From Nanobdellota archaeon (GTDB taxonomy: Archaea; Nanobdellota; Nanobdellia; Pacearchaeales; GW2011-AR1), in assembly GCA_021818475.1 (NCBI GenBank), contig JAKADZ010000003.1:27988-91987 (forward strand): a stretch of DNA of 64,000 bases, in the 5' to 3' direction. Positions 2,825-62,811 of the stretch are shown here, one piece after another. The stretch's first letter is position 1; each line of letters begins with the position of its first letter. The position numbers were made by a program, and so were the translations under genes. Below the pieces are notes generated by a model that did not search any database, was not told the DNA's origin, and saw nothing but the letters and a program-made list of their open reading frames with translations.

Positions 2825-3874
2825 TTGCATAAAAATATCATGGACGAGGAATATTTCAGAAAGATAACTTCTACGGGGATTATTTTGATTTTGGGGGTCT
2901 TGTCCTTCTTTCTTTTAAAACCGATTTTGCTCTCGGTAATCGCAGGTTTTTTGCTTGCATTTGTATTTTCCCCAATTTACAATCTCCTTGTGAAATGGAC
3001 TAAATCCCGGGGGTTTTCTGCGGCAATTTTGCTGATAATCCTTCTGGCATTAATTATAATCCCGATTTGGTTTTTGACTCCGGTACTGATAAGCGAGTCC
3101 ATAAAACTTTATGTAGCTTCACAGCAGATTGACCTCGTAACCTTCTTGAAAGATATTTTCCCTTCTATTTCAAGTTCAGTAATATTGTCCCATGCAGTTG
3201 ATTCGACAATTCACTCATTTATCACAAATGCAACTAATTCGTTGATGAATTATTTTGCAAATATCATTTCAGATATTCCAAATATTGCAGCGCAGATTTT
3301 AGTCATATTCTTTACATTTTATTATGCATTAAGAGATAAAGATCAGATAATCAGTTACATTCAAAGCCTTCTTCCATTTTCAAAGGAAGTTCATAAAAAA
3401 TTATTTGATTCAACAAGGGACATAACTTCGTCAATCCTTTTCGGTCAGATTCTCGTGGGATTGATTCAGGGGCTGATTTTATCCCTGGGATTTTTTATAT
3501 TCAATGTGCCAAATCCTTTCCTTCTGGCAATTGTTGCAATTCTAATCTGCATCTTTCCAATTTTGGGCCCAACATTTATCGGAGTACCTGTAGCTTTATA
3601 TTTTGTAATCGGCGGAAATACTTTTGCCGCATTTGGAATTATATTATTTACAATCCTTTCTCATTTATCCGATCATTTTACAAGACCTTTCTTTGTTGCG
3701 AAGAGGGCGAAACTGCATACTGCTTTGGTTTTGATAGGAATGATTGGCGGATTTATCTTCTTCGGAATTCTCGGATTTGTCCTTGGCCCTTTAATCCTTG
3801 CTTATTTGATTATAATTATAGAAGTATATAGAAACAAGAACCTTCCCGACGTTCTTATTCAGTCCAAGCAATAA
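2825..3874 (+). CDS. AI-2E family (PerM/UPF0118) membrane transporter
   Basis: 349 aa with ~8 TM helices; the overall hydropathy and conserved G/P pattern is typical of the AI-2E family. Confidence 0.6.
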   Translation: MHKNIMDEEYFRKITSTGIILILGVLSFFLLKPILLSVIAGFLLAFVFSPIYNLLVKWTKSRGFSAAILLIILLALIIIPIWFLTPVLISESIKLYVASQQIDLVTFLKDIFPSISSSVILSHAVDSTIHSFITNATNSLMNYFANIISDIPNIAAQILVIFFTFYYALRDKDQIISYIQSLLPFSKEVHKKLFDSTRDITSSILFGQILVGLIQGLILSLGFFIFNVPNPFLLAIVAILICIFPILGPTFIGVPVALYFVIGGNTFAAFGIILFTILSHLSDHFTRPFFVAKRAKLHTALVLIGMIGGFIFFGILGFVLGPLILAYLIIIIEVYRNKNLPDVLIQSKQ

Positions 3875-3910: not shown

Positions 3911-5398
3911 ATGGAACTAAAAGTAAAACTTCTAAAATGGTCTGCAGGATTTCCTGTGGCGATGCTGCATGAGCATACTGCAAATATAATCGGAGTTAAA
4001 ACAAAGGGGAGAGTTTTCATAAAAACTATTTCAAAAAATCCGAAGGGAGTTTATACAATAATCGACACTACAACTTCGCTTGTTAAAAAAAATGAAATCG
4101 CAATTTCCTCTGAACTTAAAGAAAGATTAAATCTCTCATTGGGGCAAAAGGTTGATGTTGGTCTTGCTCCTCTTTCCGAGAGTTTGCTCTTCATAAAAAA
4201 GAAAGTAAACAATGAGGAGCTTTCAGAAAAAGAAATTGATTCTATCATCCGCGATGTTATTGATAATTCCCTCTCCGAAGCAGAGATTGCACTTTTTATT
4301 TCTGCAATGTATGAAAGAGGAATGAATATGAAGGAGACTGTTTTCCTCATCAAAGCAATTCTTGGTTCAGGCCAGCAGCTGAAATTTGACAATAAATTTG
4401 TTGTTGATAAACATTCAATCGGGGGAATACCAGGAAACAGGACTACTCCGATAGTTGTTTCAGTCTGCGCAGCAGGAGGATTAATTTTTCCAAAATCTTC
4501 ATCAAGGGCGATTACAACTGCGGCAGGAACTGCAGACGTCGTCGAAACAATTGCAAAGGTTGAATTTTCAATTCCTGAACTAAAGAAAATTGTGAAAAAA
4601 GTCGGTGCATGTTTGATATGGGGCGGCTCGCTTGAGATAGTTCCTGCGGATGAAAAAATAATTACAATTGAAAAAATGCTTAACATTGATCCTGAATCAC
4701 AGCTTCTTGCTTCGATTATGTCAAAGAAACTGGCTCTTGGCGCGAAATACATTCTGATTGACATCCCATACGGGAAAACTGCAAAAGTAAGTTATAATGA
4801 AGGCATGAAATTAAAAAATAAATTTGAATATCTCGGCAAACATTTCAACAAGAAACTAAAAGTTGTTTTAACTCACGGTGATGAGCCTATCGGAAATGGA
4901 GTTGGTCCTGCTCTTGAAATAATGGACATCCTGAAGATTCTGAAAAATTCTGATGACAGACCTATGGACTTGGAAAAGAAATCTTTATTCCTTGCAGGAG
5001 AAATTTTCGAGATGACAGGAAAAGCAGGAAAGGGAAAGGGGATTGAAAGGGCAAGGGAAATTTTGTATTCAGGGAAAGCATTTGAAAAATTCAGGCAGAT
5101 CATAAAAGCCCAGGATGGAAATATTGACGGAATTTGCCTCGGGAGTTTTAGAAAAGATATAATCATGAAAAAAAACGGAACTATTTCTGAAATAGACAAC
5201 AAAAAAATAAATTCTCTTGCGAGAATGGCGGGATGCCCGATGGATAAATATGCAGGACTTTATCTTTATCATCATGTTGGGGACAAGCTTAAGAGCGGAG
5301 ATAAACTCATGACTGTTTATGCCGAATCAAGAGCACGTCTTAATGAAGCAGTCAATTTTTTTGAAGAACAAAAACCTATCACATTCAAAAACAACTAA
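3911..5398 (+). CDS. deoA: AMP phosphorylase / thymidine phosphorylase-family (glycosyltransferase family 3) enzyme, archaeal long form
   Basis: 495 aa with an N-terminal extension; motif DKHSIGGIPGNRTT matches the pyrimidine-nucleoside phosphorylase DKHSTGGVGD loop, followed by AAGG and TAAGTAD segments. Confidence 0.75.
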   Translation: MELKVKLLKWSAGFPVAMLHEHTANIIGVKTKGRVFIKTISKNPKGVYTIIDTTTSLVKKNEIAISSELKERLNLSLGQKVDVGLAPLSESLLFIKKKVNNEELSEKEIDSIIRDVIDNSLSEAEIALFISAMYERGMNMKETVFLIKAILGSGQQLKFDNKFVVDKHSIGGIPGNRTTPIVVSVCAAGGLIFPKSSSRAITTAAGTADVVETIAKVEFSIPELKKIVKKVGACLIWGGSLEIVPADEKIITIEKMLNIDPESQLLASIMSKKLALGAKYILIDIPYGKTAKVSYNEGMKLKNKFEYLGKHFNKKLKVVLTHGDEPIGNGVGPALEIMDILKILKNSDDRPMDLEKKSLFLAGEIFEMTGKAGKGKGIERAREILYSGKAFEKFRQIIKAQDGNIDGICLGSFRKDIIMKKNGTISEIDNKKINSLARMAGCPMDKYAGLYLYHHVGDKLKSGDKLMTVYAESRARLNEAVNFFEEQKPITFKNN

Positions 5399-5707: not shown

Positions 5708-6077
5708 TTCTTTAGGCTCACCTTGTCGCCTATTAATACCATTACGCCCCAGACTTTGTCAAGGCGCTTCATTCAATAAGTTATCGCGATAAATCTAAGT
5801 TAAACAATTAATTTTTTTTTCACATTAAATATTTTTGCGAAGAAATCTAACAAAGTTGATTTCGAAGCTTTGAAAATTTGCGAGTGAAGTGAGCAGAATA
5901 TTCTTCCCTTCAGAAAGTTTTAAAACCTAACAAATAATTTATAATTTATCAAGATGCCTCTGCGCGAAATTTATTGAGCGTAGAGCGAACGAAGTGAGCC
6001 TCCGTCGCATATGAGAACCTCCTGCGGGTTCTTCACAGTTCCAGCATCCATGGAACAATATGCTTGTTGGCAAAGAT

Positions 6078-6205
6078 GCCTCCGTCGCATAATGGTATTG
6101 CACCGGTCTTGAGTGAGGATAAAACCTCCTAATTGTTCGTCGAGGTTTCGTCAAACAAGAGAACCGGGCCTTTATGGCTTCCAGGTTCGATTCCTGGCGG
6201 GGGCG
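6078..6205 (+). tRNA. tRNA-Ser (anticodon UGA) with a ~48-nt intron at the canonical 37/38 position and a long variable arm
   Basis: Manual fold: acceptor GCCTCCG/CGGGGGC (one G-U pair); D-arm GCAT-AATGGTAT; anticodon stem CCGGT/ACCGG with loop CTTGAGT (U33, anticodon TGA 6110-6112, R37); intron ~6114-6161 interrupting the 3' anticodon stem; variable arm GCCTTTATGGCTT (13 nt); T-arm CCAGG-TTCGATT-CCTGG; discriminator G; CCA not encoded. Confidence 0.7.
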
Positions 6206-6366
6206 TGATGGCGTGATGCGGGCTTGAAATGCCCGCCTGTTCTTAACAAAATTAATGCTAGATTATTCTGAAAATTCGATTCCGAGCGATTTCACGAATG
6301 CGGGAAATTTTTGAAAGCAATGAGTGGGGTCGCGAGCATTGACGGGGGCGTTCCTACAAAATGTCT

Positions 6367-24873: not shown

Positions 24874-24930
24874 CCGAGCGATTTTGCGAGTGCTGGTAAA
24901 AATAAAAATGCAACGAGCAGGGTCGGGAGC
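24874..24930 (+). repeat. GC-rich repeat family 1, copy B (upstream of spt5)
   Basis: CCGAGCGATTTTGCGAGTGCTGG...AAATGCAACGAGCAGGGTCGGGAGC; shares the CCGAGCGATTTYRCG core and the GGGTCG.GAG tail with copies at 6281, 26221, 37588, 44405 and 56872 (reverse orientation). Confidence 0.55.
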
Positions 24931-26067: not shown

Positions 26068-26103
26068 AACAATTTATAAATTAATATTCGTTAAATTTTT
26101 TAT

Positions 26104-26176
26104 GGGGCTGTGGGGTAGCCTGGTAGCCTTAGAGGTTTGGGACCTCTCGACCCCGGTTCAAATCCGGGCAGCCCCA
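26104..26176 (+). tRNA. tRNA-Pro (anticodon UGG)
   Basis: Manual fold: acceptor GGGGCTG/CAGCCCC; anticodon stem AGAGG/CCTCT with loop TTTGGGA; T-arm CCCGG-TTCAAAT-CCGGG; discriminator A; 73 nt, no intron. Confidence 0.8.
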
Positions 26177-26220
26177 TTGTTTCGAAAAAATAAAACCCAT
26201 AACGGATTTGAACTTCAAAT

Positions 26221-26290
26221 CCCGAGAGTTTGCACGAGTGCGTGCAAAGATAAAAATGCAATGAGTGCGGGCTCGAGTTCGGCAGCCCCA
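26221..26290 (+). repeat. GC-rich repeat family 1, copy C, ending in a 12-nt copy of the tRNA-Pro 3' end
   Basis: CCCGAGAGTTTGCACGAGTGCGTGCAAAGATAAAAATGCAATGAGTGCGGGCTCGAGTTCGGCAGCCCCA; GGCAGCCCCATT at 26281-26292 repeats tRNA positions 26167-26178. Confidence 0.6.
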
Positions 26291-26313
26291 TTTAATAAAA
26301 TACAGAAAAGAAA

Positions 26314-36777: not shown

Positions 36778-37128
36778 ATGTCACAGACAACACGGGAAAT
36801 CACCCTTAAGGAATCAAAAGGAACATTTTCAATATTCAGGAAATCGTCGTCAAATAAAGAAAATTATGATTTTTCAGGGATTTCCGCATTAAGACAGCTT
36901 CTAAGCAACGAAAAGGCAAGAATACTTGATGTAATAAAAAATGAAAATCCTTCTTCATTATACCTTCTGTCTAAAAGGCTTGGGAGAGATTTCAAATCTG
37001 TCCACGAAGATGTAAAATTGCTAGAAAGATTTGGATTTTTGGAGCTTGTAGAGGAAAAAACAAAGAACAGAATAAGGCATAAACCAAGGCTTATTTCAGA
37101 TTCTATAACTATTCACATAAAACTTTAA
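36778..37128 (+). CDS. small winged-helix transcriptional regulator (HTH), divergent from the S-layer-like gene and adjacent to the pilin cluster
   Basis: LDVIKNENPSSLYLLSKRLGRDFKSVHEDVKLLERFGFLEL resembles an ArsR/PadR-like wHTH. Confidence 0.45.
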   Translation: MSQTTREITLKESKGTFSIFRKSSSNKENYDFSGISALRQLLSNEKARILDVIKNENPSSLYLLSKRLGRDFKSVHEDVKLLERFGFLELVEEKTKNRIRHKPRLISDSITIHIKL

Positions 37129-37712
37129 CTGTAAACAGTCAGAGAAACCTCATAATCCTGCCCGCTTCTTGCAAAATCCTGGAATCCTCCCTGATATTCT
37201 GCAGTTTTATTCCCCTTATCAATAGTAAGCTTGTCCTGTCCGTCAGCACTCACTTTCAGCTCATATCCCTTTATCGCGCTTTGATTCCCCGCATTCCACG
37301 AGTTTTCAACTATTCCCGCAAACGTCGAATTAAGAACATCACAGCTTGCCCTTCCGTCAATACAGCTTTCTCCGCTATTGCATGATATAATCAAATCCTG
37401 CAGGTTAAGAAATTGGATTTCATTCTCGCAGTCAGTGGTGTATTGGAGTGAAGCCTGAATAAAACTGTCAATCTGGTAACTTTCAGTTGTTCCTTTGGTT
37501 GGGCTTTTTATTAAAAAACTAAGCAAAATCAGCAATCCTACTGACACAATGATCGCAATAAGCGCAAATCCAACCATTTCCTCTTGCCCCGAGCGATTTC
37601 GCGGAGTTAAGGTCAGTGATTTGGAAGCGAGGTCGGGAGTTGTTTTGTTGCGGTACAAATGAAAAAAATTTCCTGTTTTTTGCTTCTGCCCTTTATTATT
37701 TAATCTTATCAT
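37125..37712 (-). CDS. archaeal type IV pilin-like protein (class III signal peptide, long leader)
   Basis: ...KSLTLTPRNRSGQEEMVGFALIAIIVSVGLLILLSF: basic residues then G-Q followed by a hydrophobic helix. The leader-coding region contains family-1 element D. Confidence 0.55.
   Translation of the reverse strand: MIRLNNKGQKQKTGNFFHLYRNKTTPDLASKSLTLTPRNRSGQEEMVGFALIAIIVSVGLLILLSFLIKSPTKGTTESYQIDSFIQASLQYTTDCENEIQFLNLQDLIISCNSGESCIDGRASCDVLNSTFAGIVENSWNAGNQSAIKGYELKVSADGQDKLTIDKGNKTAEYQGGFQDFARSGQDYEVSLTVYS
37588..37639 (+). repeat. GC-rich repeat family 1, copy D, embedded antisense in the leader-coding region of pilin gene 37125-37712
   Basis: CCCCGAGCGATTTCGCGGAGTTAAGGTCAGTGATTTGGAAGCGAGGTCGGGAG is ~85% identical to 44405-44460 although the rest of the two genes is diverged. 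Confidence 0.6.
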
Positions 37713-43640: not shown

Positions 43641-44492
43641 TTATGTTGTTGGCGTTAAGTATCCTGCAGGCCATATTTGCCCTCTTATTGCAAACTGAAA
43701 TTTATCTCCTGTGTCTCTGTCAGTCAGTACGTAAATTTTTCCGTCATTTCCCCTCAAAATTTTTTCTGCTTTCAGATTATGATAGTAAGTCATGTATGTT
43801 GCTACATCAACATCACCATAACTTGCTTCCCATTCGATTATACTATTAGCTATTGAAACTAATTCATAAAGATTATTATTCACCAAAACAACAAATGAAT
43901 TATACTTCTGCGCATTTTCTCCTTTTGTCAAAGTTAAGGAATAATTAAAAGTTGCGACAATCCTGTTTGGAAATAATTCAACTGTTTTCATTCCAGGTTT
44001 TAAATCGACGCTGAATCCTTGTTTGACATAACTCTGCTGCATTGATGTAAAACAGGCATCGACGTTATTGCTTATCTGATTTTTAATCTCTGATTCAATA
44101 TGTGATTTTAACATTGGCTGCTGCACTTCGCACGGACGGTAATATTCATTTGTGTAACATAGGTATTCAACTTTTGAATCGTTGTAAAGAAGATAATTTG
44201 TTGCATTTATGCTTCCTCCCTGCAGTGAAAGAGTGTCGACGGCATTTTTAATATCCTGTTCAATGCAGGATTGAATAAATTGTTGCGGACTTTGCTGTGC
44301 TGTTCCCAAACTTGTTTTAATCTGCGGATAAAAACTATAAATAAGAAGTCCTACAGCGACGATGATTATTCCGATGATAATAAAAATAGTTACCTGCCCC
44401 GAGCGATTTCGCGGAAGTAAGGTCAGTGACTTGCAAGCGGGGTCGCAAGCAGTTTTATTACTTAGAAAATTATTTCCCTCTTTTTTATCCAT
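43641..44492 (-). CDS. archaeal type IV pilin-like protein (283 aa), paralog of 37125-37712 at the leader
   Basis: ...ACKSLTLLPRNRSGQVTIFIIIGIIIVAVGLLIYSF; the leader-coding region contains family-1 element E (44405-44460). Confidence 0.55.
   Translation of the reverse strand: MDKKEGNNFLSNKTACDPACKSLTLLPRNRSGQVTIFIIIGIIIVAVGLLIYSFYPQIKTSLGTAQQSPQQFIQSCIEQDIKNAVDTLSLQGGSINATNYLLYNDSKVEYLCYTNEYYRPCEVQQPMLKSHIESEIKNQISNNVDACFTSMQQSYVKQGFSVDLKPGMKTVELFPNRIVATFNYSLTLTKGENAQKYNSFVVLVNNNLYELVSIANSIIEWEASYGDVDVATYMTYYHNLKAEKILRGNDGKIYVLTDRDTGDKFQFAIRGQIWPAGYLTPTT
44405..44460 (+). repeat. GC-rich repeat family 1, copy E, in the leader-coding region of pilin gene 43641-44492
   Basis: CCCCGAGCGATTTCGCGGAAGTAAGGTCAGTGACTTGCAAGCGGGGTCGCAAGCAG. 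Confidence 0.6.
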
Positions 44493-56570: not shown

Positions 56571-56804
56571 ATGCCACGAAAAAACAGAAGAAAATATTTA
56601 TTCAAAAGAGGAAAAGAAGAAATGAACTGTGAAAAAAATAATCATCATTGTCATAGAGGCGGCGGAATTTACTTCTTAGGATTTGTCGGCGCAGCAATTT
56701 ATTATATTCAAATGGCTACTTCATTCTGGGACGGAGTTCTCGGCTTTCTAAAAGCATTGGTATGGCCTGCATTTTTAGTGTACAAGTTATTGGGCGGATT
56801 CTAA
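56571..56804 (+). CDS. small membrane protein, hypothetical
   Basis: 77 aa, basic N-terminus, two TM helices. Confidence 0.35.
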   Translation: MPRKNRRKYLFKRGKEEMNCEKNNHHCHRGGGIYFLGFVGAAIYYIQMATSFWDGVLGFLKALVWPAFLVYKLLGGF

Positions 56805-56871
56805 AAATTATTTCTTATGTTTTCTTAACAGAATATATTCGCTCACTCCAAAGTCGTTCGCTGATTTCTAT

Positions 56872-56943
56872 TCCCGCCCACCCAACTCGAGCCCTCACTC
56901 ATTGCTATTATATTTTTTCCTGCATTCGTGAAAACTCTCGCCC
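56872..56943 (-). repeat. GC-rich repeat family 1, copy F (reverse orientation) in a convergent intergenic region
   Basis: Reverse complement reads GGGCGAGAGTTTTCACGAATGCAGGAAAAAATATAATAGCAATGAGTGAGGGCTCGAGTTGGGTGGGCGGG. Confidence 0.55.
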
Positions 56944-61731: not shown

Positions 61732-62811
61732 TCAATTTATTTCCTCCTCCTCTACTTCAATTCTGTCATGGGTTGGATATTCCTCGACTCTGAAAATTTT
61801 ATATTTTCCTTCTTTCAGTAATCTTCTTGCAACCTTTTCGGAAAGAATAGTCCTTTTCTTTTTTTCGTCATAAAAAACCCCTTTTAATTTAATTTTTTTT
61901 CGACTTCCTGTCGGGTTGCTGGAGTTGTGAAGAACCCGCTGGAGGTTCCCATTGATTACCAGATAAATAACAGTTCCCTCTTCTGTCCTTTTTCCATACG
62001 GAAGAATCTCATGTCTCTTAAGTCTGTTGGCAAACTGGCAGAGATTTTTCAAATCGGCAGTGCACAAATGAACTTTCAGTTTTATTTTTTTATCAGCCAA
62101 CTGATTTAAAATCCATTTCCCCGCTTCAAGACTTCCTGCGACAACATATCCTCCTTCTTCAAGTTCGTATTTTTTTGTTATTATGTCAAAATTTGTTTCT
62201 GATAATTCGAATTCATTCAGGTTAACAAATGAAATATATTTTTCAGTTCCGAAGATAAAATCTAATATCTCATGTTTTCTTTCAGGAATCATCGGCATCT
62301 CAAGTCCGATATTCCGCTTACCGAATATTTTTTCCGCCATTTCTATTTTTTTGATATCATCATCAACTTTGTTTTGGTTTATGAGGAACTCTGGGTGGAA
62401 TCTGACTTCATCGACGCATTTTTTTAATTTTTTTAATTTTTCTTCTGTGACCAATTGTGTCGGAAGGTAAATATGAATATGAAATTTTTTTCCGAATTTT
62501 TCTTTTAATGCAGAGGCAAATTTAATCGTTCTGCCAAAATAAATTAAAGGATCTCCTCCGGTGATTCCTGCAGAAGGGGCTCTGCTCTCTATCGCTTCCT
62601 GTATAATTTCATCGATATTTTTTACCTCGCGTTCATTTGCAAAAATTAAATTTTTGTTTTTTCTTTTTTTGCTTAATGAACAGTACCAGCAATTTTTTTT
62701 GCAGACTCCTGTTACGAAAAGAACTAATTTTTTTCCTTTCACGCAGTATTTGCATCCGTTTGCAACGCCGTTAACACAGAAAGAATCAAATTTTGTTTTT
62801 TTAGTTTTCAT
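61732..62811 (-). CDS. radical SAM protein with extra N-terminal cysteines
   Basis: CKKNCWYC (CX3CX2C); upstream CVNGVANGCKYC; glycine-rich ITGGDPL SAM motif. Confidence 0.55.
   Translation of the reverse strand: MKTKKTKFDSFCVNGVANGCKYCVKGKKLVLFVTGVCKKNCWYCSLSKKRKNKNLIFANEREVKNIDEIIQEAIESRAPSAGITGGDPLIYFGRTIKFASALKEKFGKKFHIHIYLPTQLVTEEKLKKLKKCVDEVRFHPEFLINQNKVDDDIKKIEMAEKIFGKRNIGLEMPMIPERKHEILDFIFGTEKYISFVNLNEFELSETNFDIITKKYELEEGGYVVAGSLEAGKWILNQLADKKIKLKVHLCTADLKNLCQFANRLKRHEILPYGKRTEEGTVIYLVINGNLQRVLHNSSNPTGSRKKIKLKGVFYDEKKKRTILSEKVARRLLKEGKYKIFRVEEYPTHDRIEVEEEEIN

Follow-up and report, generated by a model that had tools for sequence, protein, structure and literature searches.

A 64,000-nt stretch of contig JAKADZ010000003.1 from a Nanobdellota archaeon (hereafter the window) carries six copies of a short hairpin-forming repeat, the focal one of which stands just in front of spt5. 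We judge, with a probability of about 0.7, that this repeat of Pacearchaeota, Woesearchaeota and other Nanoarchaeota within the DPANN archaea is a mobile element, small and non-autonomous. The repeat itself, its fold, its phyletic spread, the anatomy of its insertions, the empty sites in relatives and the insertions within open reading frames (ORFs) were all observed directly.

A structural pattern for one form of the repeat, type 1 (CGAG-N3-TT-N3-CGAR-TGC, an A/T-rich loop of 15-16 nt, then GCAAYGAG-N3-GG-N4-GAG, of fixed length), matched the window exactly four times and gave no match in 100 dinucleotide shuffles. The matches are c1 (6283-6336, + strand, 74.9 bits), the focal copy c2 (24875-24929, +, 66.0 bits), c3 (26223-26277, +, 66.1 bits) and c6 (56886-56940, −, 73.8 bits), scored with a covariance model built from 57 members, under which the type-1 copies in the window reached 66-75 bits with E-values of 1e-15 to 1e-18. 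Run with its filters off, the model added two copies of a second form, type 2, namely c4 (37590-37639, +, 29.2 bits) and c5 (44400-44449, +, 27.8 bits), with E-values of about 1e-5; the next-ranking match in the window scored just 9.6 bits. Type 2 shares the outer stem of type 1 (CGAGCGATTTCGC...GCGRGGTCG) and differs in its apical part. Type-1 copies in the window are 54-55 nt long and type-2 copies 50 nt. A preliminary description had counted at least six copies, and the covariance model finds six, with no more in the window. The two half-sites with an A-rich spacer that it ascribed to each copy hold for the four of type 1, and not for those at 37.6 kb and 44.4 kb, which belong to the distinct subtype. 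It placed the latter at 44405-44460, off by 5-10 nt, its extents of 6281-6350 and 56872-56943 take in flanking target-derived sequence, and in place of its 55-60% GC in a genome of about 30% GC, we measured a GC content of 42-51% in type-1 and 56-58% in type-2 copies, the window having 34.8%.

The surroundings that it named, tRNAs, ribosomal genes and convergent gene ends, proved correct on the ORF and tRNA maps. The only tRNA genes found in the window by ARAGORN and Rfam are tRNA-Ser(UGA) (6077-6206, +; ARAGORN with the intron option, which gave an intron of 48 nt, and Rfam at 41 bits) and tRNA-Pro(UGG) (26103-26177, +; ARAGORN and Rfam), and the hairpins are part of neither. Copy c1 lies 77 nt 3' of tRNA-Ser, and c3 begins 46 nt 3' of tRNA-Pro, upstream of rpl37ae. 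The focal c2 is a solo insertion without flanking duplication, the start codon of spt5 (NGN/NusG) lying 12 nt downstream on the ORF map. Copies c2 and c3 are directed towards the starts of spt5 and rpl37ae, c1 and c6 towards convergent gene ends; c6 is flanked by G-tracts (GGG...TTGGGTGGGCGGG), a 'class 2' context shared with six of the other loci that we fetched (L116, L117, L123, L138, L147 and L154). Both type-2 copies are antisense to ORFs, c4 to 37125-37712 (−) and c5 to 43641-44492 (−). An orthologue of the tRNA-Ser gene in locus L128 shares both its intron and the hairpin unit downstream of it.

Folding turned every copy into one long hairpin on the given strand. From its base, the stem consists of a C-G pair, a tandem G.A/A.G, four Watson-Crick pairs, three or four U.G pairs and three Watson-Crick pairs, above which follow a second tandem G.A/A.G, two pairs, a bulged A, two G-C pairs and the loop. 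As RNA, type 1 reads 5'-C-GA-G(N3)UUU(N3)-GA-(N2)GC, loop, GC-A-(N2)-GA-(N3)GGG(N3)C-GA-G-3', with about 15 standard pairs, two tandem G.A/A.G motifs, three U.G pairs and one bulged A in total, and an A/U-rich loop of 15-17 nt. Type 2, into which c5 was aligned with other copies of its kind, retains the lower stem. In an alignment of 57 copies, 98.2% of the pair cells hold standard pairs, and all seven pairs that the search pattern left free show compensatory double-sided changes (104 cells), such as CAC/GUG, CGC/GCG and UGC/GCA, whereas sliding the partner register by 1-3 columns lowers pairing to 27-50%. RNAalifold independently predicted the same helix. All five differences between c4 and c5 at paired positions keep the pairing; among c1, L001, L150 and L157, a grouping that is partly circular, all 15 free stem columns are shared and just 51% of the loop columns.

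The U.G run and the G.A motifs keep to the same sides of the stem in all copies, so that the complementary strand would have C.A mismatches; the complement of a type-2 copy folded poorly. As duplex DNA, the arms are about 63% Watson-Crick complementary (about 12 of 19 positions), the rest being G.A or T.G conserved on one strand. Since only one strand folds and compensatory changes keep the arms, the form under selection would be a single strand, either RNA or single-stranded DNA.

The preliminary description overlooked the key feature of the tRNA-linked copies, namely that they sit within partial duplicates of the 3' end of the tRNA. Within 350 nt downstream of 38 of the 66 tRNAs in the fetched loci lies a copy, which is on the strand of the tRNA in 33 of the 38 cases; these loci had been selected for carrying copies, which inflates the tRNA fraction and leaves the strand bias unaffected. 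The layout is constant. An intact tRNA gene, ending in two segments that we call X and Y, is followed by a spacer, by X copied first in inverted and then in direct orientation, and by the hairpin, a filler and a second Y, where X is the T-loop up to positions 59-62 and Y comprises the remaining T-stem, the acceptor 3' strand, the discriminator and the trailer. The spacer measures 0-100 nt, and the filler between hairpin and second Y is 1-6 nt, mostly T. The direct X copy abuts the hairpin, and the inverted one matches the X of the tRNA exactly and ends at the hairpin base. The X copy varies with the T-loop of its own tRNA (TTCGATTC, TTCAAATCC, TCCGACTC, TTCGAG and others) and, because it tracks the particular tRNA, is derived from the target.

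Both tRNA genes of the window illustrate this arrangement. The 5' end of c1 is abutted by TTCGATTC (6275-6282, +), which reads as a copy of the tRNA-Ser T-loop, and CGGGGGCGT (6343-6351, +) is a 9-nt copy of the acceptor 3' strand, the discriminator and 1 nt more, with its original at 6198-6206. At tRNA-Pro, inverted and direct T-loop copies form a 9-bp palindrome, GGATTTGAA-C-TTCAAATCC (26204-26222, +), that ends at c3, and GGCAGCCCCATT (26281-26292, +) repeats 12 nt of the tRNA 3' end and trailer (26167-26178). Across the loci, the Y duplication is mostly 9-16 nt, extending to 42-43 nt in L128 and L133; two units stand in tandem in L157, and L156 has three copies of Y. Flanking direct repeats of at least 10 nt were found at 25 of 72 copies versus 2.1% of 2000 control positions, and those of at least 12 nt at 18 of 72 versus 0.4%, and 8 of 72 copies have a palindrome of 9 bp or more abutting their 5' end versus 0.35% of the controls. 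The same layout occurs at targets other than tRNA 3' ends, such as the antisense of a tRNA-Leu D-loop (L163) and the final codons of an aIF2-beta-like gene (L132). Without any duplication, a hairpin begins 2 nt after the tRNA 3' end in L041 and L166.

One locus departs from this scheme in another way. In L131 (2590-2770), the body of tRNA-Val(GAC) runs into a mutated T-loop copy, the hairpin and an acceptor copy, with no intact gene upstream and with the 3' strand of the T-stem missing. Judged from its sequence, this looks like a deletion between two T-loop repeats of the kind present in L133 and L162. According to a 2026 preprint (10.64898/2026.05.13.725050), no tRNA-Val was detected in 15 of 54 Pacearchaeales genomes, and the fusion and this report may be connected.

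Comparison of relatives revealed filled and empty versions of the same sites. In L158, tRNA-Arg(CCU) is followed by tRNA-Gly with a single Y and no hairpin, and a unit of about 125 nt occupies exactly this point in L119, L151 and L124. Five Pacearchaeota loci syntenic with the window, fetched through Spt5 homologues of about 90% identity, contain by the covariance model two weak copies in 102 kb, against six in the 64-kb window, and nothing at the position equivalent to c2 before spt5. Between tRNA-Pro and rpl37ae, a type-1 unit is present in the window, L136 and L146 and no hairpin in L165, L167 and L169, with rpl37ae starting within about 8-16 nt after tRNA-Pro in L165 and L167; L166 carries a different subtype directly after tRNA-Pro. 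Because they are absent at the equivalent sites of syntenic relatives, c2 and c3 are lineage-specific insertions, and the tRNA-Pro flank appears to have received at least two independent ones. We infer mobility as the cause of these differences.

Copies also reside within protein-coding genes. The gene for PheRS alpha in L129 (Pfam E = 1e-81) carries a type-1 copy in frame, read as PSDFANAGKRFNSNERG, and the resulting insertion of 17 residues stands opposite a gap in the aligned human PheRS alpha. The hairpin-encoded peptide PSDFANARKRFDSNERG recurs in an unrelated protein of L127 and L148, and PheRS beta in L141 contains a type-2 copy together with its G-rich flanks in frame. In L130 and L152, the variant CGAGTGA provides the stop codon of the upstream ORF. 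A concatenated query of hairpin-encoded peptides found no match in the protein database. The two ORFs of the window to which c4 and c5 are antisense are paralogous, and both copies lie at the 5' ends, c5 within the N-terminal coding region; the c4 hairpin would fall in the leader instead if translation starts at a downstream ATG with a GAGG motif. The products of both ORFs have a charged segment followed by RSGQ and a hydrophobic helix, an N-terminus that we take to resemble archaeal class III signal peptides; Pfam did not confirm this.

The family extends well beyond the window. A loose pattern run on species-representative genomes produced 115 matches, mostly by chance in high-GC bacteria, and five true copies, all in low-GC metagenome-assembled genomes labelled Woesearchaeota, Pacearchaeota, Nanoarchaeia, Nanoarchaeota and 'uncultured archaeon'. 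A tighter pattern retrieved 49 copies in 48 metagenome loci, low in GC throughout, and the covariance model found 66 copies in 350 kb of metagenome loci. All type-1 copies scored 59-80 bits and, after a gap, type-2-like copies 20-41 bits. No match to either subtype pattern was obtained among the 2.9 million viral contigs of IMG/VR, and the Rfam comparison suggested in the preliminary description, made with Rfam 15, showed no family overlapping any copy at its gathering score, nor at E-values up to 10. Proteins labelled Pacearchaeota or Nanoarchaeota match the Spt5 protein of the window at 87-98% identity; the contig with an identical Spt5 belongs to the same genome as the window and yielded no strain polymorphism. 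GC skew in the window follows gene orientation only, with no replication-strand signal readable from it.

These observations have to be weighed against other accounts of the repeat. The null case stated in the preliminary description, a chance similarity of GC-rich linkers without any real family, is refuted by the lack of a single shuffle match, by E-values of 1e-15 to 1e-18 and by dozens of covarying copies in other genomes. Several findings speak against a mobile element. The type-1 scores have no tail of decayed copies, which is unusual for purely selfish DNA and suggests purifying selection, rapid deletion or gene conversion, and most copies were gathered with a sequence pattern that fixes 24 columns and is biased to intact members. 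The copy at tRNA-Pro has been kept at the orthologous site in three genomes, with its stems conserved and its loops diverged, and in L136 the downstream acceptor copy has been altered in step with the tRNA. The inverted target copy beside the hairpin is not a product of standard cut-and-paste schemes, and no transposase, integrase or reverse transcriptase (RT) was found when ten ORFs of the window, mostly beside copies, were scanned against Pfam. That type-1 copies are intact, that their stems are conserved where loops differ and that the L136 acceptor copy changed with its tRNA suggests that individual copies are under some selection, and a host role may exist alongside mobility, as with the repetitive extragenic palindromic (REP) elements of bacteria. 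A stronger version of this idea, in which the hairpin is a host-functional structured RNA (e.g. a putative binding site for a protein of the G.A-motif or K-turn type such as L7Ae, serving as RNA stabiliser, processing signal or insulator after tRNAs and in leaders) and mobility is secondary, would account for the strong covariation of the stems as well as for the intact state and persistence of copies and for their 33-to-5 orientation bias with respect to tRNAs. The hairpins 2 nt past the tRNA 3' end in L041 and L166 would be freed by RNase Z cleavage, and they recall the tRNA-sRNA (small RNA) dicistrons of Nanoarchaeum (PMC3491384). This account is compatible with a mobile element, REP elements being both, but we consider it unlikely to be the primary one, since the same sites are empty in close relatives, relatives differ several-fold in copy number, sense and antisense copies within ORFs are difficult to reconcile with an RNA role, there is neither a constant promoter or terminator nor an Rfam match even at E-values up to 10, and the 3-nt bulge that defines a kink-turn (K-turn) is missing.

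Two further explanations were considered. If the hairpin were a portable promoter, its A/T-rich loop, framed by the GC-rich arms, would act as the TFB-recognition element (BRE) and TATA box, and transcription would begin about 2 nt past its 3' end. In its favour, tRNA promoters here read AAACTTTTTAAATA and stop about 22 nt ahead of the 5' end of the tRNA, a large share of type-1 loops read RGAAAANTTTTAATT and stop 20 nt ahead of the hairpin 3' end, and c2 and c3 face gene starts. The copies, however, show no bias to downstream gene starts (about 18 on the same strand versus 15 on the opposite strand within 150 nt), c1 and c6 face convergent gene ends, type 2 has no A/T-rich loop, a separate canonical TATA box lies upstream of c2, and a promoter has no need of covarying arms with a G.U asymmetry; we therefore regard this function as very improbable. 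The tRNA-linked units could alternatively be attL/attR-type scars of integrase-mediated integration of a plasmid or virus, as such events classically leave a partial duplicate of the tRNA 3' end that starts in the T-loop and extends into the trailer, and a Campbell-type crossover would yield the observed order. This would be a surprising outcome, given that the tRNA-side repeat and the hairpin are just 24-216 nt apart, with no integrase, cargo or ORF there, that the hairpin splits the duplicated segment instead of flanking it, that many different tRNAs and also non-tRNA targets (the aIF2-beta 3' end, ORFs) are hit, and that no copy occurs in the 2.9 million viral contigs. A small non-autonomous mobile element thus remains our preferred reading. 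As to the candidates named in the preliminary description, a structured element is borne out by the one-strand covariation and a small mobile repeat by the empty sites, duplications and in-frame insertions, whereas a strict MITE (a miniature transposable element with inverted repeats) had to be discarded and an independent sRNA gene family lacks support.

Known classes of RNA and DNA elements were considered in turn. The statement that the copies are neither tRNAs nor obvious C/D or H/ACA sRNAs was upheld, tests for all three being negative. A tRNA 3' half or split tRNA is rejected by the lack of a T-arm and a body. A C/D box sRNA would have C (RUGAUGA) and D (CUGA) boxes, which are absent, the invariant motifs being CGAG/CGAR/YGAG/CGAG; a C/D guide role is further precluded as the segments that would have to serve as guides are mutually paired in 98% of cells, and C/D models scored far below their gathering cut-off. 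For an H/ACA sRNA, there is no pseudouridylation pocket in a stem that is continuous save for the 2x2 G.A loops, and no ACA at a fixed distance; the 3' flanks of the hairpin vary (TT, TA, CA and others). Neither the junction sequences nor their folds contain the bulge-helix-bulge of an archaeal intron. The tandem G.A occurs twice in the hairpin, the outer one as a symmetric 2x2 loop and the inner one with only a 1-nt bulge two pairs away, and the hairpin, having no 3-nt bulge, does not appear to be a canonical K-turn. A strict MITE is excluded by arms that are poorly complementary as a duplex and by target duplications of variable length, from 0 to over 40 nt, and an independent sRNA gene family is not supported, given the lack of a fixed promoter or terminator, the copies in ORFs on either strand and the absence from close relatives. 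An integron attC site was considered and dropped, and the hairpin is too short and of the wrong geometry for a TnpB/IscB omega-RNA. RT misincorporation at modified T-loop bases does not fit either, as errors in the copies fall at positions 53-56 instead of 57/58, and the trailer has been copied too.

The transposed unit would be the hairpin of 50-56 nt, and its strongly preferred target the 3' part of tRNA genes, either T-loop positions 59-62 or the point right after the discriminator, where it would adopt the orientation of the tRNA. Insertion at tRNAs and gene 3' ends would duplicate 9 to over 40 nt of the target, so that an intact gene is restored upstream and a hairpin-interrupted 3' fragment is left downstream; elsewhere, in leaders, at convergent gene ends and in frame within ORFs, the hairpin would insert alone. 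Variable duplication, a T-rich 3' filler and an inverted target copy are not features of DDE or HUH transposition. We raise, with considerable doubt, the idea that the hairpin is the first archaeal retroposon resembling a short interspersed nuclear element (SINE), moved by target-primed reverse transcription (TPRT) at a nick in or just after the T-arm. The hairpin RNA, perhaps freed from tRNA-hairpin transcripts by RNase Z, would be copied by an enzyme that then jumps to the target strand and copies about 10 nt; the new strand would snap back on itself as far as the hairpin base, and a second cut 7-43 nt downstream would generate the variable duplication. Such a scheme would reproduce the order of tRNA, Y, spacer, inverted X, X', hairpin, T-rich filler and Y, and would also explain a palindrome that ends exactly at the hairpin. 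Of the traits expected from a retroposon, target duplications do vary, from 7 to over 40 nt, but a search for orphan 5' or 3' hairpin halves, a test for 5'-truncated copies, found none and lends the scheme no support. In L143 (1856-3291, −), about 1 kb from a hairpin copy, an Rfam RT-16 RNA stands beside an RT ORF with the motif RYVDDFVIL, and an RT-16 RNA is also found in L137 (4577-4741, −). This RT/RT-16 pair is a putative candidate for moving the hairpin.

The hairpin family is apparently undescribed; full-text literature, including queries aimed at such an element in DPANN archaea, yielded no description. Its nearest bacterial precedents are the REP elements and the Rickettsia palindromic elements (RPEs). 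Like the REP/REPIN sequences of bacteria, which are mobilised by RAYT enzymes of the HUH Y1 type, the archaeal hairpin is a short imperfect palindrome present many times per genome, forms a hairpin on one strand with mismatches and G.T pairs tolerated, and is long-lived with conserved stems. Unlike them, it has no conserved 5' tetranucleotide, occurs also inside genes and comes with long duplications of the target, a feature foreign to REPs; no RAYT-type domain was present among the ten window ORFs scanned. With RPEs it shares the character of a selfish palindrome found in frame in essential protein genes and beside RNA genes, but RPEs are bacterial, measure 100-150 bp, have an unrelated sequence and show neither T-loop targeting nor target duplication.

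Among archaeal systems, transposition of tRNA introns occurs in Thermoproteales. Such introns are likewise short structured sequences that spread among tRNA genes and leave tRNA fragments behind, whereas the hairpin has no bulge-helix-bulge, resides in a duplicated fragment and not in the working tRNA, and is also found outside tRNAs. Retroposition of SINEs by TPRT likewise involves variable duplications, a T-rich 3' filler, an inverted target at the 5' junction and an association with tRNA genes, and RT genes exist in related genomes (L143); the hairpin differs in having no internal promoter of the RNA polymerase III type, no A-tail, no 5'-truncated series and no linked RT. To our knowledge, no SINE-type retroposon has been described in archaea. 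Disruption of tRNA genes by mobile DNA has been modelled in Caldiarchaeum (PMC3293823), and mobile C/D box sRNAs have been reported in Nanoarchaeum (PMC3491384) and a MITE-like sRNA element in Pyrobaculum (PMC6009581). These sRNAs resemble the hairpin in their length of about 55 nt, in two G.A-based motifs of the same topology (terminal and internal), and in positions beside tRNAs and overlapping gene ends; RNA intermediates, possibly circular, have been proposed for their movement. The hairpin, by contrast, lacks C/D boxes, its 'guide' segments are self-paired and so cannot guide methylation, and it has no Rfam C/D match.

Some additional features were noticed around the copies. One recurrent context has GGGYGGG 5' and TWGGGNGGGAA 3' of the hairpin, giving four G3 tracts and an outer AATTCC/GGGAAT stem; it is found around c6 (56870-56885 and 56941-56943, −), in L116, L117, L123, L138, L147 and L154, and in L141 (721-800), where the PheRS beta insert corresponds to the whole G3-tract/hairpin composite. 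In a second conserved context, AAAGGGAAGRTTAAGC[hairpin]TTAAGGAAACC-N-GGTGTCCTCGC, the unit adjoins tRNA ends, as in L133 (355-470, −), L134 (8075-8200, −), L012 (7220-7360, −), L121 and L125; L156 has the flanks of this context without the hairpin at about 3400-3450 (−) (GGAAAGTTGATTGTCAAGGAAACCTTGGTTGCC), which may be an unfilled version. In the vicinity of tRNA genes and of hairpin units, a short motif, GAACGAAGTGA(A/G), is found repeatedly (window 5880-5896, 5985-5997 and 56842-56870 (−); trailers of L133, L149, L144, L001, L118 and L162), and in the reading TTGAATGAAATGAAA it sometimes lies directly behind tRNAs, where it occupies the loop of a small hairpin with a T-run after it; a terminator or a further small repeat may be involved. 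A second repeat family, GAGAACCNCCNGCGGGTTCTTCACAGTTCCAGCATCC...CAACAGGAAGTTGAA, was seen in the window at 6012-6077 (+) and about 61880-61950 (−), in L161 at 4380-4525 and a second site, and in L144 and L147. Its first copy in the window lies directly upstream of tRNA-Ser, between two copies of a 14-nt duplication of the tRNA 5' end (GCCTCCGTCGCATA, 5998-6011 and 6078-6091), and in L161 this repeat is the intron of tRNA-Thr, which suggests that tRNA introns also move in these genomes. Finally, an ORF of 60 codons (MNCEKNNHHCHRGGGIYFLGFVGAAIYY..., 56617-56797, +), below the 90-aa threshold of the ORF list, ends in the convergent spacer of c6 and, by its predicted sequence, looks like a small membrane protein.

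The family appears widespread across at least two major DPANN lineages, in whose very small genomes little selfish DNA would be expected. By the tRNA 3' fragments that it leaves and by events such as the tRNA-Val/hairpin fusion, it creates loci that can be misread as split, missing or pseudo-tRNAs, and the essential proteins PheRS alpha and beta gain peptide segments from it. As an intact, covarying hairpin with a pair of tandem G.A motifs, it is also a candidate for an RNA module that binds protein. The anatomy of its insertions, which combines a variable duplication with an inverted target copy, falls outside the known schemes of prokaryotic transposition and provides a handle on a new mechanism, possibly one mediated by RNA.

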